From: Candidatus Staskawiczbacteria bacterium RIFCSPHIGHO2_01_FULL_39_25
GTDB taxonomy: Bacteria; Patescibacteriota; Minisyncoccia; Minisyncoccales; Staskawiczbacteraceae
Length of the DNA stretch: 64,000 nt
Reading direction: 5' to 3'
Assembly: GCA_001820095.1 (NCBI GenBank)
Contig: MHOO01000011.1
Span: 135,227-199,226 of the forward strand
In this document: positions 12,607 to 56,055 of the stretch, piece after piece
How positions within the stretch are numbered: the stretch's first letter is position 1
Layout of the letters: each line of letters starts with the position of its first letter
The notes under the pieces: model-generated
What the model was told of the DNA's origin: nothing
The model's database searches: none
What the model saw: only the letters and a program-made list of their open reading frames with translations
Position numbers and translations under genes: made by a program

Positions 12607-13533
12607 ATGAAAGCAGTTCAAATTACTAGGCATGGCCATGTTGATGCGGTTAAGATTGTTGATATAGAAAAACCAAAAGCAGGCAAAGGGAATGTATTAA
12701 TAAAAGTATATGCCTCTTGCATAAACCCTATTGATATTAAAATACGGGAAGGCGCGGTACCTAATATTGCATTTCCATTTACGCTGGGTTCTGATGTGGC
12801 AGGGGTAGTAACGGAAATTGGCGAGGGGGTAGAAAGTATAGCTATAGGAAATAAGGTGTATGGACAAGCGATTGCTTTGGCGGGAGCCTCGGGGGCTTTC
12901 GCTGAATTTGCTTCTGTCCCGGCTGGCATGCTGGCCAAAATGCCAAAAAATCTTGACTTCAACCATGCTGGTGCCGCAGTTCTTACGGGGACGAGCGCCG
13001 TTCAGGCGTTGTTAGAACACATCAAGCTACAGCCTGGTCAGAAAATTCTTATCCATGGAGCCGCTGGCGGAATTGGCACCATTGCCATTCAAATTGCAAA
13101 ACATATCGGGGCTTACATTGCCACTACGGCTACGGGAGAAGGAATAGACTATGTAAAAAAGCTGGGAGCCAGCGAAGTTATTGATTATAAGCATCAGGCT
13201 TTTGATGAAATGCTTCAGGGCTATGATGCGGTTTTTGATACGGTAGGCGGCCAGACGTATGAAAAATCTTTTAAGATATTAAAAAGGGGCGGAATAATTG
13301 TTTCTATGGTGGCTGCCCAAAATCAAAAGCTTGCTGATGAGCATGGGGTTTCTGCCATAAGCCAATGGACAAAAGTTACTACAAGAAATCTTAATATGCT
13401 CACCAAATTTATTGAAGATAGTATCGTAAGGGTGCACATTGATAAAATATACTCATTTGATAGAATAAAAGAGGCATTTGAAGAGCAAGAGTCGGGAAAC
13501 GTAAACGGTAAAATTGTTATTGCTATTCATTAG
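12607..13533 (+). CDS. NADPH:quinone reductase-like medium-chain dehydrogenase/reductase
   Basis: Zeta-crystallin/Qor pattern (NPIDIKIREG, HGAAGGIGT Rossmann motif). Confidence 0.88.
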   Translation: MKAVQITRHGHVDAVKIVDIEKPKAGKGNVLIKVYASCINPIDIKIREGAVPNIAFPFTLGSDVAGVVTEIGEGVESIAIGNKVYGQAIALAGASGAFAEFASVPAGMLAKMPKNLDFNHAGAAVLTGTSAVQALLEHIKLQPGQKILIHGAAGGIGTIAIQIAKHIGAYIATTATGEGIDYVKKLGASEVIDYKHQAFDEMLQGYDAVFDTVGGQTYEKSFKILKRGGIIVSMVAAQNQKLADEHGVSAISQWTKVTTRNLNMLTKFIEDSIVRVHIDKIYSFDRIKEAFEEQESGNVNGKIVIAIH

Positions 13534-13598
13534 ACTTGTTACGTAGCATGCTACGTAACAAGCTACGTAACAAGTTCTATTAATAATTTTAAAAAATT

Positions 13599-14360
13599 AT
13601 GGAAGAAAAAACACATACCATAGAGTTTTCAGAAAAAGTATTTAAATTGGGGCTTGCCATTATTGCTGTAACCGCGCTTTTTTTAATCGGCCAAATGATT
13701 TACCAATTTAAATCATTGCCGCAAAACGCTCCCCATGAAATAACTGTAAGCGGCGAGGGCAAGGCATTGGTAAAACCCGACATCGCAACCATCAGCTTTG
13801 GAGCCAATACCCAAGGCCTAAAGAGCCAAGAGGTGGTTAACCGCAATAACGATATTATGAATGCGGTCATTAAATCAATCAAAGAGTCGGGGGTAGAAGA
13901 TAAGGATATTAAAACCACGTTCTATAACTTAACTCCTATTTATGACTACACGCCGCGGGGAGGCAGGGAATTCAAAGGGTACTCTTTAGACCAACAAATA
14001 AGCGTTAAAATAAGGAATTTTGATAAAATTTCCGAAATTTTAGATAAAGCTGCTGCCAATGGGGCAAATACTATCGGAGATTTGCAGTTTACCGTAGATG
14101 ATATGGAAAAAATACGGGCAGAAGCAAGGACAGAAGCAATTAAAAACGCAAAAGAAAAAGCCATGTCATTAATAGGTCCGGCAGGCCTGACGATAGAGAG
14201 GGTCGTCAGCATTACCGAGGGGCATGGAATTCAGCCGCCGCAGCCTTTCTACGGCCAAGCAGAAGCTTTCTCTAAAGATGCTGCAAGCATTGCTCCTCAA
14301 ATCCAACCTGGCCAAATGGAGGTTGTCAGCAATGTTACATTAACTTACCGAGTCCGGTAA
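13599..14360 (+). CDS. SIMPL (DUF541) domain protein
   Basis: N-terminal TM anchor plus the SIMPL pattern (ITVSGEG...PDIA, IRAEARTEAIKNAKEKA). Confidence 0.85.
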   Translation: MEEKTHTIEFSEKVFKLGLAIIAVTALFLIGQMIYQFKSLPQNAPHEITVSGEGKALVKPDIATISFGANTQGLKSQEVVNRNNDIMNAVIKSIKESGVEDKDIKTTFYNLTPIYDYTPRGGREFKGYSLDQQISVKIRNFDKISEILDKAAANGANTIGDLQFTVDDMEKIRAEARTEAIKNAKEKAMSLIGPAGLTIERVVSITEGHGIQPPQPFYGQAEAFSKDAASIAPQIQPGQMEVVSNVTLTYRVR

Positions 14361-14376
14361 ATTTCAAATTCGTAGT

Positions 14377-14763
14377 ATGGATTGTATATTCTGTAGCATT
14401 GTAAAAGGTGAAATTGATTCGGCTAAAATTTGGGAAGATAACCATGTATTAGCTTTTTTGGATGTTCACCCTGATACGAAGGGGCATTGTTTAGTCATTC
14501 CTAAACAGCACTGTGAAAATATTTTTGATATAGATGAAAATCTATTGCAAAAAGTTATCGTAGCAAGTAAAAAAATTGCAGAAAAAATCAAAAACTCTTT
14601 GCAGGCAGAGGGAATTAATCTGATGAGTAATAATGGCAAAATAGCAGGGCAAATAGTGCCTCATTTTCATATCCATATTATTCCAAGATATGCAGAAGAA
14701 GATCTGTTGTTCAATAAAACCCCTGATATGAATACACTGAAAGCATTAGCCCGGCAAATTTAA
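14377..14763 (+). CDS. HIT family hydrolase
   Basis: CIFC N-terminus and histidine triad HFHIHIIP. Confidence 0.9.
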   Translation: MDCIFCSIVKGEIDSAKIWEDNHVLAFLDVHPDTKGHCLVIPKQHCENIFDIDENLLQKVIVASKKIAEKIKNSLQAEGINLMSNNGKIAGQIVPHFHIHIIPRYAEEDLLFNKTPDMNTLKALARQI

Positions 14764-14779
14764 AAAATTCGTGAGTTAG

Positions 14780-14845
14780 TGAGTTAGGCTAAGCCTAACT
14801 CCAGGCAATAGGCTTGTGAGTTAGGCTAAGCCTAACTCCAGGCAA
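14780..14845 (+). repeat. Two tandem copies (period 37) of a hairpin repeat TGAGTTAGGCTAAGCCTAACTCCAGGCAA
   Basis: Identical 29-mers at 14780-14808 and 14817-14845; a related hairpin GTGGAGTTAGGCTTAGCCTAGCTCCAC lies at 25502-25528. Confidence 0.6.
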
Positions 14846-14846
14846 G

Positions 14847-14882
14847 CCAAAAATCGGCAGCAAGAACTGCCGATTTTTGGTT
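14847..14882 (+). terminator. Intrinsic terminator after the HIT gene
   Basis: CCAAAAATCGGCAG / CTGCCGATTTTTGG stem followed by TT. Confidence 0.7.
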
Positions 14883-14947
14883 ATGCAGGATGTTGATTTC
14901 TATTAATTTTGTGTTAATATGAATTCAGTTTAAAAATTCTCATTTGC

Positions 14948-16777
14948 ATGGACTCCCAAATAGAAGAAATCAAAAGCAAATTAAGCGTTGTGGACGTCGT
15001 GGGGAGTTATATGAAATTGGCCAAAACGGGGGCTAATTTTAGGGGAGTCTGCCCTTTCCATTCAGAAAAAAAACCCTCTTTTTTTGTGTCTCCGGCACGA
15101 GACCTCTGGCATTGCTTTGGATGCGGCGCCGGGTCCAGTATTTTTGACTTTGTCATGAAAATTGAAGGGGTGGAATTTGGAGATGCCCTAAGGATTTTAG
15201 CTAACAAGGCAGGGGTTGAATTGAAAAGGGAAAATGTGCAGTTGAGGACCGAACGCCAGCGCCTCTATGAAATTTGCGAATTAGCTTGTAAGTTTTTTGA
15301 AAAGCAGTTAGAGGGCGGAGTAGGCAAAGAGGCAGAAGAGTATTTGCTAAAAAGGGGAATTGCCAAAGAGAGTATAAAAAAGTGGAGGCTGGGGTATTCT
15401 CCCGATACGTGGAACGGCCTGTCAGATTTTTTAATAGGCAAAGGATATAAAAGGGAAGAAGTTGTAAAAGCTGGATTGGCAATTCAAAAAGAGCAGAGGA
15501 ATGATTCTTATGATAGATTCCGCGGCAGGATTATGTTTCCCGTGTTTGACTTGAACTCCCAGCCGGTGGGTTTTGGGGGAAGGGTATTTAAGCAGGGTTC
15601 AGACAAAGAAATTGCAAAATATATCAATACTCCGCAAACCTTGCTGTATGACAAATCAGGAATTCTCTACGGATTGAATAACGCCAAACTGGCCATTAGA
15701 AAGCAAAACCAATGCGTGGTGACGGAAGGATACACCGATGTCATTATGTGCCACCAGGCCGGCTATGAAAATACGGTAGGTGCGTCGGGAACCGCTTTAA
15801 CTTCCCAGCACATGGTCATTTTAAAAAGGTATTCTGAAAAATTAATCCTGGCGTTTGATATGGATATTGCTGGGGATTCGGCCACCAAACGGGGGATTAA
15901 CGGAGCCCAAGAACAGGGTTTTGACATTAAAATTATAGAAACATACCTCAAGAATGCCGATCCCGCAGACATTATTGTAAAAGATCCTGCGGCATGGGAA
16001 CAAGCGGTAGCCCAAGCCAGGGGCATTATGGATTATTACTTTGACTCGGCTTTTGCAGCATTTAATAAGAATGCTCCGGAAGGCAAAAGGGATATCGGTA
16101 AAATACTGTTGCCTGTTATTAAGCGCTTGCCTAATAAGATAGAGCAGTCATACTGGATCCAAAAATTATCTGAAATGCTGGGCGTAAAAGAAGAAGCGGT
16201 CATGGAAGAGCTGGTGAAAACTCAGGTTGCAGAACGTTCTAGTTTTGCCCGCAAGGATGCAAAAATGGCCGATAGCGCGCAAGATGAGGTATTGGGCACC
16301 GAAGGCAGAAAGAAGCTTATAGAAGAAAAAGTTATTTCGTTAATTTTAAAAAACCCTGATTATGTTAAATTAATAGACGAGGCGCACTACGCTTTTTTTT
16401 CCGAAAAAACAAGGAATTTCCTGCAAAAACTTAGCAAGATTATAGAAGAGCAAAAGCCTCTAGCAGAAGGGGAATTAGTAAAAGATTTCAGGGCAATTTT
16501 TGACAGCCTTCTTTCTTCAAAAGGAGAAGGAGTAGAGGCAGAATTTAATTCCGAGGTTAAAAATTTTTTGGCGGCGCTCGCTTTGCGGGCCGATGCCGAC
16601 TACCAAGAGGATGGCCAGGAGGAGATGTCGCTTTGCTTATTGCAGCTAAAAAATATAGAATTAAAAAATAAATTAAATAAAATTTCAGAGGATATTAAAA
16701 AAGCAGAACAGGAAAATGACCACCAAAAAGTGAATGCCTTGATTGCAGAATTTAATGCGCTAACAAAAGAATTATAA
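14948..16777 (+). CDS. dnaG: DNA primase
   Basis: [11 protein letters not shown] zinc finger, TOPRIM ([15 protein letters not shown]). Confidence 0.95.
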
Positions 16778-16779
16778 TA

Positions 16780-17964
16780 ATGGCAAAAAAGAAAAAACCA
16801 AGAAAATTAAAAAAACCGAAGCCCTTAAAGAAGAAAAAAGTTTCCAGAAAACTTTCTAAGACAAGGAAGCGTAAACCGGCAAAAAGGGTTAAAAAGGAAA
16901 AAATTACCCAAGAGCAGATAGATGCCCTTTTACGCAAAGGTGAAGAGCGGGGTTTTTTGACGAACTCTGAAATACTGTATTTTTTCCCCAACATAGAAAG
17001 CAACGTGGACGAACTGGAAAGAATATACGATCTCTTAAAAGAGCGGGGGGTTGCGATACGGGAGGTAAGGGAATTCTTGGAAATAAAATCCAAGAAAGAA
17101 AAAAAAGCAAAGAAAGCGGTTTTAGGCAAAATTGACCCCATCCAAATGTACTTAAAAGAAATCGGCAGGTCGGGGTTTTTGTCGGCCAAGGAAGAAAAAG
17201 AGTTGGCCAAGCGCATTGAACATGGAGAAGAGGACGCAAAAAATAAATTGGCATTGGCAAACTTGAGGCTCGTGGTTTCTATTGCCAAAAAATACATCGG
17301 CAGGTCGCCAAACCTCACGTTATTGGACTTGATCCAAGAGGGAAACCTGGGGCTTTTTAAGGCCGTGAAAAAATTTGACTGGAGGAAGGGGTATAAATTT
17401 TCCACCTATGCAACCTGGTGGATCCGCCAGTCAATTACCCGCGCCTTAGCTGACCAGGCAAGAACCATCAGGATTCCCGTGCACATGATTGAAACTATTT
17501 CAAAGTACACTAAAATCAGGAGGAGCCTTTTGCAAGAACTGGGCCGGGAGCCTTTGGCAGAAGAAATTGCCGCTGAAATGGGGCTGGAAGTTGATAAAGT
17601 CCACCACATCAGGAAAATTGCCCAAAAAGCGGTTTCATTGGAGACTCCGATTGGAGAAGATAAAGACAAGCAAGACAGCGTATTGGCAGAATTCATTAAA
17701 GACGACAAGTCAATTGCGCCAAACACCGAGGCCTCCAGAAAACTGTTGAAAGAACGGTTAAAAGAAATTTCCAGCGAGCTTACCCAGCGGGAATTAAAAA
17801 TTTTGGGTATGCGGTTCGGTTTGGAAGACGGCGTTATGCATACCCTTGAAGAAACTGGTGAAGAATTCGGGGTTACCCGCGAAAGAATCAGGCAGATCCA
17901 GGCAAAAGCTTTAGAGAAACTGCGAAGGCATTCAGACCTGAAAAAAGTACGAGACTATTATTAA
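16780..17964 (+). CDS. rpoD: RNA polymerase primary sigma factor with a Lys-rich N-terminal extension
   Basis: Regions 2-4 ([29 protein letters not shown]); starts 3 nt after dnaG. Confidence 0.95.
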
Positions 17965-18100
17965 ATTTGAAATTTGAAATTTACAATTTGAAATCAATTT
18001 TAAATAACTAAATTTGAAATGATTAAAACCGACGTCGCCTTTTCAAATTAATATATTGTAGTATTGAATTCAAATTTCAAATTTCGAATTTCAAATTCAA
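17965..18100 (+). repeat. Family-1 (TTTGAAAT-type) quasi-palindromic intergenic element, copy 1
   Basis: Fills the rpoD-pyk gap; core GAAATGATTAAAACCGACGTCGCCTTTTCAAATT flanked by complementary TTTGAAAT/ATTTCAAA arms. Confidence 0.65.
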
Positions 18101-18106
18101 AACGCT

Positions 18107-19183
18107 ATGAATCCACGAATTATTGCAACGATAGGGCCTAAATCTGAAGAATATGACATCTTAAGCCAAATGGCTGCTGAAGGAATGAATATCATGCGGG
18201 TTAATTTTTCCCATGCCACAGAATCTCAATGGCATAAAATAAAAGATAATCTTGCAAGGATAAAAAAAGAAACCGGCGCCGATATAAAAATGATGGCAGA
18301 CCTCCAGGGCCCAAGGATACGCTTGGGAGTGTTGCAAAAAGATGTAGAAATTGTGAAGGGCGCTACGTATATATTTTTTTCAGGGAAAGCGAACGTTGCA
18401 AAAAATGAACTGCCTATAGATTACCCTGACCTCCATAAATTCATTAAACAGGGGCAACCGATGTATCTTTCAAACCGTTTGGTTGAGTTGCGGGTTGAAA
18501 AAGTATCGGGAAAGAAAATTTTTGCAAAAGCTGTTACGGGCGGAGTGGCCTCAAGCAGAAAAGGCATTAATGTTCCAGAGACCATTATTGCGGGCAGTGC
18601 CTTAACCAAGAAAGATATCAAAGACGCAAAATTTGTGGCAAAAAACGGCGCGGATTATGTGTGCCTTTCGTTTGTGCAAACCAGCAAAGATGTTGAGCAG
18701 CTAAGAAAAGCGCTGGCAGATGATGCTATAGATATTATTGCAAAAATAGAAAGGGCGTCGGCGTTAGACCACATTGACAGCATTATAAAAGCTTCCAATG
18801 GAATTATGATTGCCAGGGGGGATTTGGGGATTGAAATGCCCATAGAAGAGCTTACTATTATACAAAAAAACCTCATCCGCCATGCGCATCAATACAAAAG
18901 GCCTGCCATTGTGGCAACCCAGATGCTAGATTCCATGGCAAAAAATCCGTATCCTACGCGGGCAGAGGCCGCTGATGTAGCCAACGCCATTTTTGACGGG
19001 GCTGACGCCGTCATGCTTTCCGATGAAACGGCTTCCGGAAATTATCCGGTCATGGCGGTGTCTACCATGAAAAAAATTGCCAAGAAAGTAGATGAATACT
19101 TCAATAGCACTAACTATTTTGAGCAGGCCCATGGGGGTGTGGGACTTGAACAGAACCAGCTTGAGAAGCGAAAACAGAGATGA
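18107..19183 (+). CDS. pyk: Pyruvate kinase, short form lacking the C-terminal domain
   Basis: Barrel-domain motifs (MRVNFSHA, MIARGDLGIE, MLSDETASG); 358 aa; last ~17 codons lie in the 5' arm of the element at 19133..19399. Confidence 0.85.
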   Translation: MNPRIIATIGPKSEEYDILSQMAAEGMNIMRVNFSHATESQWHKIKDNLARIKKETGADIKMMADLQGPRIRLGVLQKDVEIVKGATYIFFSGKANVAKNELPIDYPDLHKFIKQGQPMYLSNRLVELRVEKVSGKKIFAKAVTGGVASSRKGINVPETIIAGSALTKKDIKDAKFVAKNGADYVCLSFVQTSKDVEQLRKALADDAIDIIAKIERASALDHIDSIIKASNGIMIARGDLGIEMPIEELTIIQKNLIRHAHQYKRPAIVATQMLDSMAKNPYPTRAEAADVANAIFDGADAVMLSDETASGNYPVMAVSTMKKIAKKVDEYFNSTNYFEQAHGGVGLEQNQLEKRKQR

Positions 19184-19399
19184 GGTCAAGGCGCGACGAG
19201 GAAACATAGCCTTGCGCTATGTTTCCGAAGTCGCAACGCAGACATCATCTCTGTTTTCGCTTCCCTTCGGGCTCTGTCACTTGCTTGTCTTCTTCGTATT
19301 CAGAATGAAACGATGCGCAAGGCATCGTTTCATTCCTCAATCCTTGAATACAAGCAATATACGAGAGCTCAATTGGTTCTGTTCGAGTCCCACACCCCT
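19133..19399. ncRNA. Candidate structured RNA or structured element, copy A (267 nt; homologous to 62892..63160)
   Basis: 25-32-bp closing helix and two long internal hairpin domains; motifs TCAAGGCGCGA, GCAACG, GCGCAAGGC (GCAAG pentaloop) and CCTTGAA at the same relative offsets as in copy C. Confidence 0.5.
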
Positions 19400-19443
19400 A
19401 GCATCAAGATTGATTTTAGAAACTTATAAAAGATAAATTTTGC

Positions 19444-19480
19444 AAAAAAAATTGGGATGTCGGACATCCCAATTTTTTTG
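19444..19480. terminator. Bidirectional intrinsic terminator
   Basis: A-run, AATTGGGATGT-CGG-ACATCCCAATT stem, T-run; lies between convergent units. Confidence 0.7.
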
Positions 19481-19497
19481 TTGCAACGTTGCAATAC

Positions 19498-19893
19498 TTA
19501 GCGGTTTATCTGTTCTTTTACCAGTTCAACTAATTGCATAGGGGAAATATTTGCTTTCACCAAAAATTTATCTGGTTTTATATAGCTTATGTTATGCAGG
19601 GCATCGCTGGTGTAATTACTTAAAATAAAAATAGCAATATCTTTGGTCGCCTCATTCTTTCGTAGGGCATACAGGATCTCTAACCCGTTGATGTCGGGCA
19701 ATACCAAGTCAAGCAAAACCAATGCTGGTTTTTCCCGTTTGCCTGCCTGCATTTCTTTTATTTTTTCCATAGCTTCTCTGCCCGTGGTGATCCCCTCCAC
19801 GTTAATATGAGCTGCTTTCAGGGCGGTGGTGTAAATAGCCATGATTTCCAGCTCATCCTCAATAAGAAAAACGTTATTTTTTGATGGTGTCAT
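19498..19893 (-). CDS. Single-domain response regulator (receiver domain only)
   Basis: 131 aa; CheY-like pattern (LIEDE, LVLLDLVLPDINGLE, K near the C-terminus). Confidence 0.85.
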   Translation of the reverse strand: MTPSKNNVFLIEDELEIMAIYTTALKAAHINVEGITTGREAMEKIKEMQAGKREKPALVLLDLVLPDINGLEILYALRKNEATKDIAIFILSNYTSDALHNISYIKPDKFLVKANISPMQLVELVKEQINR

Positions 19894-19981
19894 AGTGAAT
19901 ATTTTTACTATATTTCATTACATCAATTATATCATTTTTTGAAAAATCAAACAAAAACCGAGATCTAATCTCGGCAAATGT

Positions 19982-20256
19982 TGGCTCCGCAGGTAGGATT
20001 CGAACCTACGACCCGCTCCTTACACGTTGCCCCAAATTTTCAAATGGGAGTGGACTATATCTTTACCCTTGTGGGTATTTCGGTATCTAGTCTCTACGGA
20101 GCCCACGCGGCACAAAGTGCTTTGCGTGGTTCCCTCGGTATTGGCTTAGTCTTTCGACATTAGCGTTCACCGATATCCCGAAAAGTTCATTTCAAGATTT
20201 CTCTTGAAAGCTGCCTTAATCGACAGGGAGCCGCTCTACCGCTGAGCTACTGCGGA
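19982..20256 (-). tRNA. tRNA-Asn(GUU) interrupted by a group I intron in the anticodon loop
   Basis: Exons 20256-20223 and 20022-19982 join into a 75-nt cloverleaf (UCCGCAG/CUGCGGA acceptor, G73, CCA, loop CUGUUAA). Confidence 0.85.
20023..20222 (-). ncRNA. Group I intron (200 nt, no ORF)
   Basis: Exact S-element AAGATATAGTCC (complement of 20052-20063), R-like GTAGAGACTAGA (complement of 20086-20097), 5' exon ends in U opposite a GCAG guide, intron ends in G. Confidence 0.85.
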
Positions 20257-20414
20257 ATGTACTTATATATTACTAAATTATAAGAATTTTTCAATACAGG
20301 GGATAGAGAGCATTTTGGCATTCAAGCATAATCTAAAAAATCGTCAGTGTTTGCTGGTTATTTTTTTATTTAAGACTTATACTGAAAAAACAATCATCCA
20401 AAACACTTTCTCTT

Positions 20415-21515
20415 ATGGAAAATTTTTTTAACGTTGTCTCTCACTACCAAAAAATAAAATCCCTTTATTTCCGCTATGAACGGTGGCTGATGCCGGCAAC
20501 GCTGGTTATCGGTTTTTTGGTTGACTATATTACCTTCACCAACATCCAGCTCAAAATAACCCTTTCCCTGCTTTTATTCTACTGGGTAATTACGGGAGCA
20601 ACCATTGCTTTTACCAATTTCTACGATACTGGAAAACTATCGTTAAAATTCAGATACTTGCGCCTGTTTGCGCCGTTATTAATTCAGTTTACGTTTGGAG
20701 CGCTACTCGGCAGTTCAATGGTTTTTTACTGGTTTAGCGGAGCCTTTTCCATTAGCTGGCCGTTTATGGCAATCATTGCGATGCTCATGGTTTCCAACGA
20801 TGTCCTCCGGCATTATTTTTTAAAGCCCATCGTACAGATCAGCGTATATTTTTTTACCACCATATCCCTTTTTTCTATTATTCTGCCCATTCTTTTCCAC
20901 TCATTAAGCGCTTGGCTTTTTATGGCAGCGGGCGCGGCAAGCCTTGCAGTATTTTATTTTTATATCCGTTTTTTATCTTCCAGCAGAGATTATATGCGCC
21001 AGCAAAAAAAGTATTTTCTTGCTTCCATTGCTACCATATTTTTTACCATGAACGTTCTGTATTTTGCCAATATTATTCCGCCAATACCGTTAGCCTTGCG
21101 GGAAGCCGGAATGTACCATAACATCCGCGTATCTAACAGATCTTACGTGATGGCTGGCGAAGCCGAAGGGTTTTGGCAAACCTTAATCCATGGGCAAACC
21201 CTGCGCTTAAAACCAGGCGAGCGCGCGTATGTCTACACCTCTATTTTCGCTCCTGCTGAATTGCGCGCCGCCATTTTTCATCATTGGCAGCATTACGATG
21301 AAGAAAAAAAGGATTGGGTGGAGAAAGATGCACTGTCGTTTACTATTACGGGCGGCCGGAAAGAAGGCTATAAAGGATATTCTTGGGAATCTAATTTAGC
21401 GCCTGGCAGGTGGCGCATCTATGTGAAAAATTACCGAGGCCAGGTGCTTGGGATTATAAGATTCAATGTTGAAAGAACCCAAGAAGAAGTAAAGCTCCAA
21501 GAAACCATCCGGTAA
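20415..21515 (+). CDS. Polytopic membrane protein with a DUF2914-like C-terminal domain
   Basis: About eight hydrophobic helices, then a soluble beta-rich domain (GRWRIYVKNYRGQVLGIIRFNV). Confidence 0.65.
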   Translation: MENFFNVVSHYQKIKSLYFRYERWLMPATLVIGFLVDYITFTNIQLKITLSLLLFYWVITGATIAFTNFYDTGKLSLKFRYLRLFAPLLIQFTFGALLGSSMVFYWFSGAFSISWPFMAIIAMLMVSNDVLRHYFLKPIVQISVYFFTTISLFSIILPILFHSLSAWLFMAAGAASLAVFYFYIRFLSSSRDYMRQQKKYFLASIATIFFTMNVLYFANIIPPIPLALREAGMYHNIRVSNRSYVMAGEAEGFWQTLIHGQTLRLKPGERAYVYTSIFAPAELRAAIFHHWQHYDEEKKDWVEKDALSFTITGGRKEGYKGYSWESNLAPGRWRIYVKNYRGQVLGIIRFNVERTQEEVKLQETIR

Positions 21516-21681
21516 GATATTTGCGTTTTACAGACACCCGGAGTCTGAACTTTAGCAAGGACAGTCCTTGCTAGGGGTGTTCGCAGAAAATCCGCTATAG
21601 CGGATTTTCTGCGAACGAACCAACATTCATTGCGAACGAACCAACATTCATTTACATTTTTTAATTTTCAGTGCATACTAT

Positions 21682-21704
21682 AAAAACCCGCTGCGGGTTT
21701 TTTA
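21682..21704. terminator. Intrinsic terminator hairpin
   Basis: AAAAACCCGCTGCGGGTTTTTT. Confidence 0.6.
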
Positions 21705-21729
21705 ATTTCCTATAAAACGGTCCCATACC

Positions 21730-23211
21730 ATGGCTAACGAAACAATACTGCGGTTTAATAATGTTTCATTTGAATACACCGCCTCAAAAAAAATACTTGA
21801 TGAGGTTGATTTTTCGGTACGCAAAGGCGCAAAAATTACCATTATGGGGCAGAATGGGGCGGGCAAAAGCACCATATTCCAGTTGATGGCGGGCGGCTTG
21901 TCTCCGGAATCAGGCAGCGTTAATGTGGGGCAGAATATAACCATTGCCTTGGCGCGCCAGGCAGTTTTGGCTGACCAAATGGATTTAACCTTGCGCGAAT
22001 TTTTCCAGAAATCTCTTAATGAAGCCGCCTCCGCCAAGGCTTCGGCGAGCCAAAGAAAAATCTATGACATTGACCCGAAAATTGATGCTGTACTGGAGGC
22101 CGTAAATTTAACAGCTGACCACGAGAAAAAAATAAAAAGTTTTTCGGGCGGGCAGCAGGCTAGGATTCTCTTGGCTTCAGCATTAATACAAGACAGTGAC
22201 TTGCTGCTGCTAGACGAACCAACCAATAATTTAGACAAAGAGGGCATTGCCCATTTAACCAAATTTTTAGTGCAGTATAAGAAAACGGTGGTGGTCATTT
22301 CCCATGATTCTGATTTTTTAAATGCCTTTACTGACGGGGTTCTCTATTTAGACGTGCACACTAAAAAAGTGCAATGGTACCAGGGAAATTATTATGATGT
22401 GTTAGACCAAGTTGCCGCCCAAATTGAAAAAGAGGCCAGCCAAAATGCCAGGCTTTCGAAAAGCATTACTGATAAAAAAGAAAAAGCAAATTATTTTGCC
22501 AACAAAGGCGGCCGGCTTCGTCTGCTGGCCGCCAGAATGCGCGAAGCCGCCGAAGAAATGGAAGACAATAAAGTAGAAAGCAGGAAAGATGATAAAACCA
22601 TACGCCAGTTCACCATTCCGGCGCAAGAAGGTACGGGCGGGGAACTGTTGAAAATTACCAGTTTGACAGTGATAAAAAACCACCAGCCCAAAAATATAAA
22701 AGCCAATATTTCTTTATATAAGAACCAGCATTTATTAATTTCTGGCCCAAATGGAATTGGCAAAAGCACACTGCTGGAATCTTTGGTAACGGGAAACGCC
22801 AAGGGCGCCAGCATTGCGCCTGGAGTGGTGGTGGGGTACTACAAACAAGATTTTTCAACCCTTAATGTTGATGAAACAGTATACCGGGCATTTTCAAAAG
22901 TGGCGGGCGGATTAGACGAGCAGAGTTTGCGGGCTATGGCCGCGGGATTTTTAATTTCAAACGACGTATTATTTTCTAAGATCGGAAGTTTGTCAGAAGG
23001 CCAGAAAGGGCTGGTAATGTTGATGAAATTGACATTGCTAAAACCCGGCCTGCTGATTTTAGACGAACCCACCAACCACATCAACTTCAGGCATTTGCCT
23101 GTCATTGCCAAGGCCTTAGACGAGTATAAGGGGGCCATGGTATTGGTGAGCCACGTTCCTGAATTTGTGGCAAAAATCCGTATCGATGAAACGCTGGAGT
23201 TAAAAGCTTGA
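21730..23211 (+). CDS. ABC-F family ATPase (two ABC domains, no TM domain)
   Basis: Two Walker A motifs (GQNGAGKST, GPNGIGKST), two signature motifs (SGGQ, SEGQ), charged linker. Confidence 0.9.
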   Translation: MANETILRFNNVSFEYTASKKILDEVDFSVRKGAKITIMGQNGAGKSTIFQLMAGGLSPESGSVNVGQNITIALARQAVLADQMDLTLREFFQKSLNEAASAKASASQRKIYDIDPKIDAVLEAVNLTADHEKKIKSFSGGQQARILLASALIQDSDLLLLDEPTNNLDKEGIAHLTKFLVQYKKTVVVISHDSDFLNAFTDGVLYLDVHTKKVQWYQGNYYDVLDQVAAQIEKEASQNARLSKSITDKKEKANYFANKGGRLRLLAARMREAAEEMEDNKVESRKDDKTIRQFTIPAQEGTGGELLKITSLTVIKNHQPKNIKANISLYKNQHLLISGPNGIGKSTLLESLVTGNAKGASIAPGVVVGYYKQDFSTLNVDETVYRAFSKVAGGLDEQSLRAMAAGFLISNDVLFSKIGSLSEGQKGLVMLMKLTLLKPGLLILDEPTNHINFRHLPVIAKALDEYKGAMVLVSHVPEFVAKIRIDETLELKA

Positions 23212-33560: not shown

Positions 33561-33651
33561 GTAAGTAACACATTAAAGTGGGACGTGTGACTCCCAATTT
33601 TTTTTGTAAGTAATAGTAGGTGTAAGCGTCATATATCGTAGAACGAAACCT

Positions 33652-33794
33652 AATTTGAAATTTTCAATTTGAAATTTGAAATCAATTTGAAATTATTGAA
33701 TTTGAAATGATTTAAACCCGGCGTCGTGTTTTCAAATTTAAATATTCAATCATTGAAATATTGAATTCAAATTTCAAATTTCAAATTGAAAATT
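33652..33794 (+). repeat. Family-1 quasi-palindromic intergenic element, copy 2
   Basis: Core GAAATGATTTAAACCCGGCGTCGTGTTTTCAAATT with TTTGAAAT/ATTTCAAA arms; ends about 10 nt before ATG 33804. Confidence 0.65.
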
Positions 33795-33803
33795 CGCAAA
33801 GAT

Positions 33804-34556: not shown

Positions 34557-34591
34557 TACTAATACTTGAATTTGAAATTGTAAATTTCAAA

Positions 34592-34727
34592 TTAAATCCG
34601 AAGCACGAAATCCGAAATCCGAAACAAATTCAAAATACCAAAATTAAAAATCAAAAAACACGTTTAGAATTTCCCGTCTTTAGAATTTAGATATTGTTTC
34701 GAATTTCGAGATTCGGATTTAGGGTTT
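34592..34727 (+). repeat. Family-3 quasi-palindromic intergenic element
   Basis: AAATCCGAAGCACGAAATCCGAAATCCGAAACAAAT ... ATTGTTTCGAATTTCGAGATTCGGATTT; homologous to 5098..5243 (inverted). Confidence 0.5.
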
Positions 34728-45503: not shown

Positions 45504-46519
45504 TTTATCGCAAAACGGACGCGAAACATAACGCAAAACGGACGCGAAATTTTTGCGTCTTTTTAGCGTTTTTGTTTTGCGTTAGTTTGGCGATGCCTGC
45601 CGCAGCAGAAGCGGCGAATTTATACTTTTCTCCGGTTTCAGGAAACTATGCCCAAGGAGAAAATTTTACGGTGAGTATCTTAGTAAATGCGGAAAAGCCG
45701 GTGAATGCGGTAAGCGGAACCATATCTTTTAACACCAAATATTTAGAAGTGCTTTCACTAAGTTATGCCAGCAGTATCATTAACCTTTGGGTGGTAAATC
45801 CCACCTTTTCTAACAAAGGAAGCACGGGAAATGTGAATTTTGAGGGAGTCATTTTTAACCCCGGCTATACGGGGTTTCAAGGAAGAGTCATTGACGTTGT
45901 ATTCCGCGCAAAGAGTATTGGGTCTACCAACTTGGTCTATAGCAATTCTGCGATACTAGCGAACGATGGAGAAGGCACGAATGTGGCTTCATCAAGCGGA
46001 TCAGCTACGTTTAACATTATTAAGTCGCAAGCGCCGCCGCAGGAAGTTTTGGAAAAAATAAAAAAAATTGAGGAAGATATAAAGACGATTACTGAAAAGC
46101 CTGCTCCCAAACCGGTGGTAATCGTGCAAACGTCAGAAGCGCCCCCTATATTAAAATTTTGGAATAGCCTGCCAGCCTGGCTAAGGGGAAGTGTTATTGC
46201 GGCGGTAAGCATACTTACCTTGATTTTCTTATTTATTATCGGCAGCTTGCTCTTAATTGTCATGGTATGGCTTTGGGGCCACGTATGGCGCAGAAGGCAA
46301 ATTTGGGCGTATAACGTCAAGCGTTTTTTCCTTACGCTTCTGCTCTTGCTTGGGTTGGCCAGGCGGGAGCTAAAGGGAGATATCCTTTACGGCGTCCATG
46401 AATTTAAAGAAGAGTTTAGCCATGCGGGCGATATTCCATCATTCAGGATGGTTTTGATTAATTATTGTTTGTTGATTGGAAGAGTAACAAAACGATTCTT
46501 CACCAAGAACGAAGGCTAG
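45488..46519 (+). CDS. Cohesin-domain protein with C-terminal TM segments
   Basis: 16-nt overlap with the previous gene; NFTVSILVNAEKPVNAVSGTISFNTKYLEV...VIDVVFRAKSIGSTNL; hydrophobic C-terminal helices. Confidence 0.72.
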   Translation: MEKEIIYRKTDAKHNAKRTRNFCVFLAFLFCVSLAMPAAAEAANLYFSPVSGNYAQGENFTVSILVNAEKPVNAVSGTISFNTKYLEVLSLSYASSIINLWVVNPTFSNKGSTGNVNFEGVIFNPGYTGFQGRVIDVVFRAKSIGSTNLVYSNSAILANDGEGTNVASSSGSATFNIIKSQAPPQEVLEKIKKIEEDIKTITEKPAPKPVVIVQTSEAPPILKFWNSLPAWLRGSVIAAVSILTLIFLFIIGSLLLIVMVWLWGHVWRRRQIWAYNVKRFFLTLLLLLGLARRELKGDILYGVHEFKEEFSHAGDIPSFRMVLINYCLLIGRVTKRFFTKNEG

Positions 46520-46520
46520 C

Positions 46521-46668
46521 CTTGAATTTGAAATTCGAAATTTGAAATTTGAATTCAATATTTTAATATTTAAATGTTCCAATTTGAAAACACGACGTCC
46601 GGTTTAAATCATTTCAAATTTGATAATTTCAAATTGACTTCAAATTGTAAATTGTAAATTTCAAATTT
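46521..46668 (-). repeat. Family-1 quasi-palindromic intergenic element, copy 3 (inverted)
   Basis: Reverse complement contains GAAATGATTTAAACCGGACGTCGTGTTTTCAAATT with the same arms. Confidence 0.65.
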
Positions 46669-46672
46669 TTTC

Positions 46673-48127
46673 ATGTTGACCAAAACTGATTTCATGAATT
46701 ACTTGGAATGCCCTATGTATCTGTGGCTTTCCAAACATCGGCCCGAGTTGCTCCCAAAAGATACGCCTGAAAAAGAGCGTATTTTTGCAATGGGCCGGCA
46801 GGTGGATGAACTTGCTAAAAAGTTATTTTCAGCCGGCATTGAAGCGCAAGGATATAACGAACAAGGCTGGGAAAATACCAAAAAAGCAATAGCGGGGGGA
46901 GCTGAAATTATATTCCAGCCGACAGCGGTTTCAGGAAACATTGGGTGCCGGGCCGATATTCTGGTTAAAAATAAAAAAGATAATACCTGGGATATTCACG
47001 AGGTAAAAATGGCCACCAAGGTAAAGAAAGAATATATTTTTGATGTCGGTTTCCAGCGCATCTGTTTTGAAAATGCTGGCATAACCATTTCAAGCACCCA
47101 TCTTGTTCATATTAATAGTGATTATGTTCGGAAAGGTGAAATTAACCCCCGTGAATTATTTGCCATCAGCGATATTACTGATGAGGTAAATAGAAAACTG
47201 CCTGAAATCCAAGATGAAATTGAAAGAGCGCTAGTGGTAGCAGATTGGAAAGAAGATCATTATGCAAACCTTGTTAACGGATGCCATAACGCAAAAAACT
47301 GCGAATATATAGAATATTTCTGCAAAGAGAATCCAAAAGTATATTCATTTTCCAGTGTCCTTTTGCCCCAAACGCTGCTAGCGTTATTGGATAGAAATAT
47401 TTTGGATTATCGTAACGTGCCAGCTGACATATTACAGGCTGTTGGGTACGAACTAGAACAAGAATTCACCGAAATAAATGCGCTGGCTATTAAAAAAGAG
47501 TTTGAAAAATTGCAGTATCCGTTATATTTCTTTGATTACGAAACGTACAATTCTCCAATACCCCCCTTTGACGGAGTAAAGCCCTACCAGCAGATTCCGT
47601 TCCAGTATTCGCTGATGATACAAGATAACCCAACAGCTTCCGTACGCCATACTGATTTTTTGATGAAGAAATTTGAAAATCCGATGCGCGACCTTCTTTC
47701 AAAACTTGAGAAAGACATTGGGCCGACGGGAAGCATTATTGTATGGTTTGCGCTGTTTGAATCCAAGCGCAACGAGGAAATGGCGGAACAAGAACCCGAA
47801 TTCATAGATTTTTTGAAATCAGTAAATGAACGGATGTTTGACCTTATGCTGATATTCAAATTTAAAAATAAAATGTACATTAAAAGCGAGTTTAAAAAGT
47901 TAGCTTCGTTAAAAATAGTGCTTCCTGTTCTATGTCCTGAACTTTCCTACAGTTCTTTAGCGATTCAAGAAGGGGGAACTGCTTCTGCCAGCTGGCCGAT
48001 TCTTACCAATGGCGTACTTACTCCGCATGAGAAAATAAAATTGGAAAACGACATGCTTGAATATTGCAAACGGGACACCCAGGCTATGGTAAGCATTTTG
48101 CATCGCGTTTATAAAGATATAGAATAA
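46673..48127 (+). CDS. DUF2779 protein: N-terminal Cas4-like PD-(D/E)xK nuclease plus C-terminal DEDD-type exonuclease-like domain
   Basis: YLECPMYLWL, ADILV..DIHEVK; C-terminal FFDYET and YCKRDTQAM motifs. Confidence 0.8.
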   Translation: MLTKTDFMNYLECPMYLWLSKHRPELLPKDTPEKERIFAMGRQVDELAKKLFSAGIEAQGYNEQGWENTKKAIAGGAEIIFQPTAVSGNIGCRADILVKNKKDNTWDIHEVKMATKVKKEYIFDVGFQRICFENAGITISSTHLVHINSDYVRKGEINPRELFAISDITDEVNRKLPEIQDEIERALVVADWKEDHYANLVNGCHNAKNCEYIEYFCKENPKVYSFSSVLLPQTLLALLDRNILDYRNVPADILQAVGYELEQEFTEINALAIKKEFEKLQYPLYFFDYETYNSPIPPFDGVKPYQQIPFQYSLMIQDNPTASVRHTDFLMKKFENPMRDLLSKLEKDIGPTGSIIVWFALFESKRNEEMAEQEPEFIDFLKSVNERMFDLMLIFKFKNKMYIKSEFKKLASLKIVLPVLCPELSYSSLAIQEGGTASASWPILTNGVLTPHEKIKLENDMLEYCKRDTQAMVSILHRVYKDIE

Positions 48128-54378: not shown

Positions 54379-55218
54379 ATGATTCAAGACAAATATAGCG
54401 CATTATGGGTGTCGCATTCCTCAATTGGAGACTTTATTAAGTGTCCGAGGGCGTACTACTTGCATAATATTTACCGGACGAAGGATAATCGGAAGATAAA
54501 TACCGTAAGTCCTGCTTTGTCGCTAGGGATTGCGGTGCATGATACGCTAGAAAATTTGGCGAATTTTAAGACAGAAATTCGGTTTAATGTGCCTTTGGAA
54601 GTGGCGTTTGAAGAAAATTGGAAAAAGGTTTCAGGGAAGCTGGGTGGGTTTAAAAGCGAGACAGAAGAAGCGGAAGCCAAAGAGCGCGCCCGGAATATGG
54701 TGCTGCGGGTGCAAAAAAATCCGGGGCCTTTAGCCAAATTAACGGTTAAGTTACGGCCGCATGCCAATGACATGCCCCCTAATTTTTATTTATCGGAGGC
54801 TGACAACATTATTTTAAACGGAAAGATTGACTGGCTGGAATATGTGCCAGAAAATGACAGTATACGGGTAATTGATTTTAAAACAGGGAAAAATGAGGAA
54901 AGCCCGGATTCGCTACAGCTGCCTATTTATGCCTTATTGCTGCATAATTTGCAAAAACGGAAAGTGTCGGGAGCGGCGTATTGGTATTTAGATAAGGACG
55001 ACAAACCAAAAGATGTTGCGTTGCCAGAGATTGACCCGGCCAAAGAGCGGGTGCTTGCTATTGCTAAGAAAATAAAAGAAGCAAAAGAACGGGGCGTATT
55101 TGAATGTTCGCGCAAAACATACGGTTGCTTTGCATGTACGCCTTTTGAAAAAATTATAAAAGGCGAAGCCGAATTTGTGGGAATAGGAGGATATAATCAA
55201 GAACTTTATCTAATTTGA
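54379..55218 (+). CDS. Cas4/RecB-like PD-(D/E)xK nuclease with a Cys cluster
   Basis: N-terminal FIKCPRAYYL, IDFKTGK, C-terminal CSRKTYGCFAC. Confidence 0.8.
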   Translation: MIQDKYSALWVSHSSIGDFIKCPRAYYLHNIYRTKDNRKINTVSPALSLGIAVHDTLENLANFKTEIRFNVPLEVAFEENWKKVSGKLGGFKSETEEAEAKERARNMVLRVQKNPGPLAKLTVKLRPHANDMPPNFYLSEADNIILNGKIDWLEYVPENDSIRVIDFKTGKNEESPDSLQLPIYALLLHNLQKRKVSGAAYWYLDKDDKPKDVALPEIDPAKERVLAIAKKIKEAKERGVFECSRKTYGCFACTPFEKIIKGEAEFVGIGGYNQELYLI

Positions 55219-55344
55219 AATTTGAAATCAATTTGAAAATATCAAATTTGAAATGATTCAAACCCGACGTCACGTTTTCAAATTAAAATATTGTAACATT
55301 GAAATATTGAATTCAAATTGTAAATTTCAAATTTCGAATTTAAA
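55212..55344 (+). repeat. Family-1 quasi-palindromic intergenic element, copy 4
   Basis: Core GAAATGATTCAAACCCGACGTCACGTTTTCAAATT; overlaps stop codon 55216-18 and ends 3 nt before ATG 55348. Confidence 0.65.
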
Positions 55345-55347
55345 ATT

Positions 55348-56055
55348 ATGAACTTACAAAATAAGGTAATAATTTTGACGGGGGCGGCCAGAATTGGACA
55401 GCATGTGGCGGAGGAACTAAAAAAACGAGGGGCAAATTTAGTGATAGCATATTTTAAAGACCCAAAAGAAGCTGCGCTTGGTTTTGGTATGCAGGCTGAT
55501 GTTTCAAAAAAAGAAGATGTGCAAAGAGTAGTAGAATTTACAAAAGAAAAATTTGGCCAGATTGACGCGGTGGTGCATATGGCGGCTATTTATGAAAAAA
55601 GCATATGGGGAGAATTAAATGAAGGCCACTTTGAGAAGAATATGAATGTGATTGCCAAAAGCGCTTTTTTGTTTGGTAAAATAGCGGGGGATGAAATGCT
55701 TAAAAATCAAGGTGAAATCAAAGGCAAGATGATTTTCTTTTCCGACTGGTCAGTGCTGGCAAGGCCGTATAAAGATTATCTGGCGTATAACGCCGCAAAA
55801 TCAGCTGTGGTAGGTCTTACAAAATCATTTGCAAAAGAACTGGCGCCATCTATTTTGGTGAATGCCATAGCTCCTGGCCCCATGCTTCGTCCACCGGATT
55901 TAACCGATGAAGAAAATAGAGAAGTGCTTGCCGGCACGCTGTTAAAACGGTGGGGCGGACCAGAAGAAATTGTAAAAGGGGTTTGCTATCTTTTGGAGTC
56001 TGATTTTATTACCGGTCACATATTAACTATTGATGGGGGAAGGACCATTGCTTGA
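55348..56055 (+). CDS. Short-chain dehydrogenase/reductase
   Basis: TGAARIG cofactor motif, YNAAK catalytic motif. Confidence 0.9.
   Translation: MNLQNKVIILTGAARIGQHVAEELKKRGANLVIAYFKDPKEAALGFGMQADVSKKEDVQRVVEFTKEKFGQIDAVVHMAAIYEKSIWGELNEGHFEKNMNVIAKSAFLFGKIAGDEMLKNQGEIKGKMIFFSDWSVLARPYKDYLAYNAAKSAVVGLTKSFAKELAPSILVNAIAPGPMLRPPDLTDEENREVLAGTLLKRWGGPEEIVKGVCYLLESDFITGHILTIDGGRTIA

Follow-up and report, generated by a model that had tools for sequence, protein, structure and literature searches.

A tRNA-Asn(GUU) gene of a Patescibacteria genome very probably split within its anticodon by a 200-nt group I intron

The window, that is, the whole stretch of 64,000 nucleotides analysed here, carries genes for DnaG, RpoD, Pyk, a response regulator, a DUF2914 protein and an ABC-F protein around the locus of interest. 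Judged by gene content and by the nearest RpoD matches, which are Patescibacteria genome bins, the genome is placed in the candidate phyla radiation (CPR), Patescibacteria. On the minus strand, a 34-nt 5' exon (20256-20223, TCCGCAGTAGCTCAGCGGTAGAGCGGCTCCCTGT) and a 41-nt 3' exon (20022-19982, TAAGGAGCGGGTCGTAGGTTCGAATCCTACCTGCGGAGCCA) of a tRNA-Asn(GUU) gene are separated by a 200-nt intron (20222-20023), which begins CGAUUAAGGCAG and terminates ...CAACGUG. The elements of the gene, in the direction of the minus strand, are the following.

20267-20294, minus strand: promoter-like site TTGAAA-16 nt-TAATAT, found by consensus scan as a pattern match only; putative function
20223-20256, minus strand: 5' exon, tRNA-Asn positions 1-35, matching exactly the 5' part of an uninterrupted tRNA-Asn at metagenome locus L137
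20023-20222, minus strand: predicted group I intron, 200 nt, without endonuclease ORF (Rfam RF00028, homologues, covariation and ORF list)
19982-20022, minus strand: 3' exon (sequence, ARAGORN and match to uninterrupted tRNA-Asn)
19947-19975, minus strand: intrinsic-terminator-like hairpin GCCGAGAU-UAG-AUCUCGGU followed by UUUUUGUUUG, a pattern match only; putative function

The 5' exon supplies the 5' strand of the acceptor stem, the D arm, the 5' strand of the anticodon stem and C32 U33 G34 U35, and the 3' exon supplies U36 A37 A38, the 3' strand of the anticodon stem, the variable loop, the T arm, the 3' strand of the acceptor stem, G73 and CCA. Joined, the exons give 75 nt that ARAGORN calls as tRNA-Asn(gtt), a canonical cloverleaf with U1-A72, G73, an encoded CCA and the anticodon loop CUGUUAA. 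The initial annotation, made from the letters of the window, had arrived at the same two exon lengths, the same 75-nt tRNA-Asn(GUU) and loop, and a discriminator G followed by CCA. The R-like and S elements that it had seen in the intron were located at 20097-20086 (GTAGAGACTAGA) and 20063-20052 (AAGATATAGTCC), both on the minus strand, and it was correct in stating that a homing-endonuclease ORF is absent: no endonuclease gene was found in the intron, where the longest sense-strand ORFs encode 31 and 27 aa. The -10 hexamer of the putative sigma-70-like promoter, as matched by pattern, ends 11 nt upstream of tRNA position 1, and the terminator-like hairpin, which contains GC pairs and is followed by a T-run, starts 7 nt past the CCA.

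Two other features of this neighbourhood can be recorded. A 61-aa ORF on the plus strand (19978-20163) overlaps the 3' exon and the intron's 3' half in antisense orientation, and several public assemblies (L122, L123, L124 and L126) list it as a gene; it is almost certainly an artefact of the tRNA having gone undetected. Directly 3' of the DUF2914 gene lies a 38-nt perfect palindrome (21579-21616), which matches itself on both strands in blastn and is probably a terminator between the DUF2914 and ABC-F genes.

Standard tools pass over the gene. ARAGORN with default settings reports only a tRNA-Ser elsewhere in the 64-kb window, and Rfam at the gathering threshold reports nothing at the tRNA-Asn locus. 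When Rfam was run in E-value mode, the intron matched RF00028 (Intron_gpI) over the full model (1-253) with 46.5 bits, 3.5 bits below the gathering score of 50 bits for this family; the E-value was 8e-11 for the local stretch and 1.1e-8 for the whole 64-kb window, within which this mode gave no other group I match. A search with the Rfam group I model had been proposed in the initial annotation as a check, and its outcome is thus a full-length match, though one below the gathering score. With introns allowed, ARAGORN does find a split tRNA, which it calls Thr(tgt) i(33,200) and not Asn.

Homologues were collected by scanning genomes, one from each species, for the R...S core, AGAGACTAGA-N(12-42)-AAGATATAGTC; the scan returned at least 120 loci. 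Among the matches listed, almost all are Patescibacteria genome bins, with labels that include Saccharibacteria, Paceibacterota, Yanofsky-, Moran-, Peregrini-, Gracili-, Doudna- and Lloydbacteria and others. ARAGORN with introns allowed finds an interrupted tRNA in 90 of 121 stretches (the 120 listed loci plus the window). Hosts were assigned after a check that the 5' site is preceded by U and the 3' site by G; among the matches listed they are mainly tRNA-Asp(GUC), tRNA-Asn(GUU) and tRNA-Tyr(GUA), all cut after C32-U33-G34-U35. The tRNA-Asn(GUU) hosts among these matches number 27 with the window, or 26 further ones. The window precursor aligns with its homologues end to end in blastn at about 65-71% identity, with E-values down to 1e-34. 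A tRNA-His(GUG) host, which would have completed the GUN set, was considered and dropped, since of its two candidates L031 proved to be Asp and L055 Tyr. In a phage search the only match was one of 43 nt between the P4/P5 region and Enterococcus phage DNA, in or next to a DNA polymerase I gene (annotated so in one of eight records), and it is uninformative.

The same scan brought up several further points. The split tRNA-Asp(GUC) genes at L002, L007, L019, L030, L039, L082, L085, L086, L102 and L114 have the T-loop GTCAGCA in place of the usual TTCGAAT, with the T stem GTGGG/CCCAT, and ARAGORN does not call them; this T-loop is an unusual trait of one group of Patescibacteria. Some intron-bearing bins are labelled as Gammaproteobacteria (L008, L010, L035, L061, L067 and L116) or Bdellovibrionales (L080 and L083). 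Three of these (L008, L061 and L080) share the rpoD/tRNA-Asn neighbourhood and have RpoD proteins 56-59% identical to that of the window, and such labels may be unreliable. The R...S core pattern also occurs in group I introns of 23S rRNA (L018, L021, L042 and L089; 3' flanks ...GCGTGAGACAGGTTGGTC...AGTACGAGAGGACCGG) and 16S rRNA (L104; 3' flank ...AAACTTAAAGGAATTGACGG), the last in a record labelled Saprospiraceae, not Patescibacteria. Relative to the CPR rRNA group I introns, the intron of the window has the same R...S core; the host gene and the guide differ, and the rRNA introns are often longer.

A structural alignment was built from 25 Asn-type introns. From it, and from the fold of the window copy, the elements of the ribozyme are assigned as follows.

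20211-20226, minus strand: P1 hairpin, exon CUGU plus C+1 (20226-20222), loop GAUUAA, guide G plus GCAG (20215-20211)
20190-20209, minus strand: P2 hairpin UUUCAAGA-GAAA-UCUUGAAA; compensatory changes at 8 of 8 pairs, also in the minimum free energy (MFE) fold
20178-20183, minus strand: P3 5' strand UUUCGG, partner 20083-20078; 6 pairs, 4 of them compensatory, 100% of alignment cells paired
20135-20173, minus strand: P4 (UCGGUG/UACCGA) around P5 and the P5a GAAA hairpin; pair swaps among homologues
20098-20134, minus strand: P6/P6a/P6b stem; 93.8% of cells paired, compensatory change at 3 pairs
20086-20097, minus strand: R element GUAGAGACUAGA, presumably the same as the Azoarcus sequence, holding the P7 5' strand G-A(bulge)-GACUA (20094-20088)
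20078-20083, minus strand: P3 3' strand CCGAAA, forming the P3/P7 pseudoknot (covariation, MFE fold)
20064-20077, minus strand: P8 hairpin UACCC-ACAA-GGGUA; compensatory change at 3 of 4 counted pairs
20052-20063, minus strand: S element AAGAUAUAGUCC, J8/7 plus the P7 3' strand UAGUCC
20031-20048, minus strand: P9 hairpin CCCAUUU-GAAA-AUUUGGG, with two U·U mismatches in the window copy
20023, minus strand: omega-G, the last intron nucleotide; G in 27 of 27 Asn-type homologues listed, 35/36 junction

RNAalifold, run on the alignment, predicted P1, P2, P3, P4, P5, P6, P8 and P9 independently. Once P7 was included as a pseudoknot, 96.0% of helix cells were paired, compared with 35-44% when the partners are slid by 1-3 columns. 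Compensatory double changes occur at 25 pairs (214 cells), and none of 500 shuffles matched any of the observed measures. For example, the first pair of P4 changes from A-U to U-A in 6 sequences, the first pair of P5 is C-G or G-C in a ratio of 12:11, and 5 of the 7 pairs of P9 covary. Since the scan pattern prescribed the R element and P7, these do not vary among the homologues, and P7 draws no covariation evidence from this set. In the window intron, the core helices P3-P8 and the P3/P7 pseudoknot can all be placed, and its single-sequence MFE fold recovers P2, P3, P4, P5/P5a, P6/P6a/P6b and P8. By inspection, the 3' strand of P3 adjoins P8 directly and P7.1/P7.2 are not visible. No conserved P10 was seen by eye among the homologues, and a UAA/UUA pairing with loop L1 is possible in the window copy. 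In P2 and P9 the GAAA loops, together with the P5 motif, may reflect tetraloop-receptor bracing, as in other compact tRNA introns.

These results bear on the idea that two tRNA halves merely flank chance group I motifs, or that the intron is one cut out by a protein endonuclease. The failure of the default detectors is all that speaks for it. The covariance model matches over its full length with the E-value given above for the whole window, homologues reach 1e-34, and covariation is strong in P2, P3, P4, P5, P6, P8 and P9; moreover, to our knowledge bacteria lack the tRNA splicing endonuclease pathway. We regard such a coincidence, or cutting by a protein, as vanishingly unlikely.

A more specific doubt concerns the junction. 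The initial annotation had warned that another junction would turn the product into tRNA-Thr(UGU), and the concern is a real one: with the same intron placed two nucleotides upstream, at 33/34 (5' exon ending at U33, 20225; 3' exon starting at 20024), the exons give an equally well-folded tRNA-Thr(UGU) with the loop CUUGUAA. At both candidate junctions a U precedes the 5' splice site and a G the 3' one, and both products form a good cloverleaf. Thr(tgt) is also the choice of ARAGORN in intron mode, and the alignment given by Rfam pairs U33 with A at the junction in a longer, mismatched P1 (CGGCUCCCU/AGGCAGCUU). That P1 is displaced by CUGUC/GGCAG, which has the support of covariation. Within the latter helix, CUGU/GCAG is invariant, U33 is in a Watson-Crick pair with A, and the wobble is formed by U35 (20223) with G (20214), as U35·G in 25 of 25 aligned homologues. 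The U·G wobble in a CUGU/GCAG P1 had been foreseen in the initial annotation. The pair beside it, between intron position +1 and the base 5' of GCAG, is G-C in 10, A-U in 8, C-G in 6 and U·G in 2 of the 27 Asn hosts listed, so that pairing is kept in 26 of 27 with one mismatch; the sister hosts listed keep it in 35 of 35 (Asp) and 18 of 19 (Tyr). This covariation fixes the register of P1.

The other end of the intron and the exons point the same way. The terminal G proposed in the initial annotation is present at 20023 and throughout the Asn-type homologues listed. In 3 of the 27 (L016, L061 and L080) the intron ends ...AUG, and the Thr junction would therefore be without a terminal G there. 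The P1 wobble register and these homologues without an alternative omega-G place the insertion between 35 and 36. In bacteria, tRNA-Asn is marked by U1-A72 and G73, and its synthetase recognises the anticodon together with G73. The uninterrupted tRNA-Thr(UGU) genes in the Patescibacteria loci collected have G1-C72 and U73 in 21 of 21 cases and are at most 75% identical to the window exons; neither these identity features nor a wobble at U33 is present in the exons and P1 of the window. Scanning metagenomes for the anticodon arm in its unbroken form, GCTCCCTGTTAAGGAGC, gave 84 loci, in 43 of which ARAGORN calls a tRNA-Asn(GTT) that contains the arm. Seven uninterrupted tRNA-Asn(GTT) genes are at least 90% identical to the spliced exons, and the one at L137 is identical at 73 of 73 positions. 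The Thr-type uninterrupted counterpart GCTCCCTTGTAAGGAGC occurs in 0 of the 210 loci collected, a biased sample. The same miscall as Thr(UGU) 33/34 by ARAGORN and tFind is on record for Patescibacteria genes (Nakagawa, Amikura, Omae & Suzuki, mSystems January 2026, PMC13011429; bioRxiv 10.1101/2025.07.03.662931, July 2025), where it was settled by sequencing of the spliced product: a Patescibacteria tRNA-Asn intron underwent GTP-dependent self-splicing in vitro, with an omega-G-to-C control, and the sequenced junction was 35/36. On these comparisons we consider the Thr(UGU) junction extremely unlikely and reject it in favour of Asn 35/36.

Group I introns of bacterial tRNA genes were long associated with a few sites, namely tRNA-Leu(UAA) at 34/35 and tRNA-fMet at 33/34 in cyanobacteria, tRNA-Arg(CCU) at 36/37 in Agrobacterium and tRNA-Ile(CAU) in Azoarcus, all of subgroup IC3. 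Unlike these classical introns, the one described here has an Asn host and lies at 35/36, rather than at 33/34, 34/35 or 36/37. The initial annotation had listed Leu, fMet, Arg and Ile hosts and had called an Asn host in this lineage unusual; the list is right for the classical set known before 2020 and falls short of the present range, and the judgement of rarity is out of date. The number of settings for bacterial tRNA group I introns rises from 4 to 21 in Williams 2020 (bioRxiv 10.1101/2020.01.27.920355), whose label 'Asn.4Ug', and its confusion with 'Thr.2Ug', are given here as quoted in PMC13011429. In 95 complete Patescibacteria genomes, group I introns at 35/36 were reported in 15 tRNA-Asn(GUU) genes, 3 tRNA-Asp(GUC) genes and a tRNA-Tyr gene, with lengths of 184-894 nt and mostly without endonuclease genes. 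The introns at 35/36 were assigned to subgroup IA in 25 of 28 cases, and no Patescibacteria tRNA intron was assigned to IC (PMC13011429). In Patescibacteria, an Asn, Asp or Tyr host with the intron at 35/36 is by now the norm.

By its Asn exons, its 35/36 site, its Patescibacteria host and a ribozyme homology of 65-71%, the intron of the window falls within this Asn class. It resembles the published members in host tRNA, site (CUGU|UAA), phylum, size range, the U-1 and omega-G boundaries, the failure of standard tools and the Thr(UGU) 33/34 miscall. It differs in the genome only, GCA_001820275.1 being a draft bin from the Rifle aquifer, outside the 95 complete genomes of Table 1 in PMC13011429. 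With the Patescibacteria Asp(GUC) and Tyr(GUA) introns at 35/36 it shares the R and S elements, the guide GCAG and the covarying +1 pair; the host tRNA differs, and hence the first base of the 3' exon, which is C or A in those hosts, not U. The kind of intron is thus already known, with self-splicing shown in vitro for homologues (PMC13011429), and the present copy is functional-looking as far as its sequence can tell. It adds one CPR example from the Rifle aquifer, together with a close intron-less lineage, to the published pattern and raises no new question.

Could the window copy be a relic, a decayed intron that no longer splices within a tRNA pseudogene, with Asn decoded by a gene elsewhere? 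The Rfam score below gathering, the two U·U mismatches in P9, a P5 motif (GCUAAU/UAAGC) that departs from the GCUAAG/UAUGC of several relatives, and a tRNA survey that spans the 64-kb window only would all be compatible with decay. However, the window copy keeps all 62 columns that are invariant in the 25-sequence alignment, and every core helix pairs. Across its family, P9 commonly contains mismatches (87% of cells paired). The exons show no difference from an intact tRNA-Asn, and neither the promoter-like nor the terminator-like signal is disrupted. The interrupted gene is also identical in six independent assemblies, which include GCA_001820275.1, an ANAN16-labelled scaffold (L123) and a JGI metagenome contig (L125). 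Over a longer range, a stretch of 6,396 bp (L121) from contig MHPB01000013.1 of GCA_001820275.1 is 100% identical to window positions 16498-22893, as is the same stretch in L123, and the protein of the neighbouring response regulator has exact matches in GCA_001820275.1 and five other assemblies. Finally, in the published genomes concerned, the intron-bearing tRNA-Asn is the sole copy (PMC13011429). A relic is therefore very unlikely.

The reading that we prefer, and hold to be very probable, is that of a single Patescibacteria tRNA-Asn(GUU) gene split at anticodon positions 35/36 by a 200-nt group I ribozyme without an endonuclease. The Rfam match, the covariation, the tRNA identity features and the identical uninterrupted gene agree on the group I intron inside tRNA-Asn(GUU) that the initial annotation had proposed. 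By analogy with the homologue spliced in vitro, we infer that the window copy is transcribed and spliced. Transcription from its own promoter to its own terminator would yield a precursor of about 275 nt, in which the intron would adopt the usual core fold of helices P1-P9 and a P3/P7 pseudoknot. The guide G-GCAG would pair with C32-U33-G34-U35 and C+1, so that the U35·G wobble would mark the 5' splice site, and free guanosine would attack after U35. The terminal G (20023) would then take the G-binding site of P7, the G-C pair beside the bulged A (GAGACUA/UAGUCC), and the freed 3'-OH of U35 would attack after G20023, ligating ...CUGU to UAAGG... The spliced product would read ...CCCUGUUAAGGAG..., a mature tRNA-Asn with the loop CUGUUAA.

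The closest relative found is a metagenome contig (L190), whose RpoD is 91.5% identical in amino acid sequence to that of the window. It is syntenic with window positions 12619-17975, which comprise genes upstream of dnaG, dnaG itself and rpoD, and about 3.4 kb downstream of rpoD it carries, on the minus strand, an uninterrupted tRNA-Asn(GTT) that is 95% identical (L190:4736-5797 and L190:9202-9276). The genes between rpoD and the tRNA differ between the two. An rpoD gene near tRNA-Asn was also seen in at least 15 other Patescibacteria loci, and the uninterrupted gene of L190 is therefore plausibly the same locus minus the intron. The intron is one gained or lost between close lineages, in either direction.

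For readings of movement and regulation, the data cover a shared guide sequence and this presence/absence difference. Reverse splicing into C32-U33-G34-U35, a motif common to the Asn, Asp and Tyr tRNA genes, might let one ribozyme lineage move among these hosts, and such movement would fit the absence of the intron from L190. It is unlikely, in our estimation, that the intron is kept as a regulator and not as a neutral passenger. Were it so, maturation of what is possibly the sole tRNA-Asn would depend on free guanosine or GTP and on Mg2+, and in a genome that has few protein regulators the capacity for translation would thereby be tied to nucleotide status.

The main practical value of the locus lies in annotation. 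Default tRNA finders and the Rfam gathering threshold miss the gene, and intron-aware ARAGORN mislabels it as tRNA-Thr(UGU); the completeness of the genome would consequently be underestimated, with tRNA-Asn scored as missing.

A further observation concerns AT-rich elements of about 140 nt elsewhere in the window, at 17963-18098, 33651-33795, 46524-46668 and 55211-55348, with a partial copy at 34568-34594. At least two copies are intergenic, one between rpoD and pyk and the other between ORFs that end at 46519 and start at 46673. The elements are built from 7-nt tandem units, with (AAATTTG)n in one arm and inverted (CAAATTT)n in the other, and AAATTTGAAATTTGAAATTT has 31 matches in the window with up to three mismatches, where 0.17 would be expected. 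When folded, the rpoD/pyk copy forms one long hairpin (-34.8 kcal/mol, z = -6.8). The element may act as a bidirectional terminator, or it may be a repeat of REP or MITE type.
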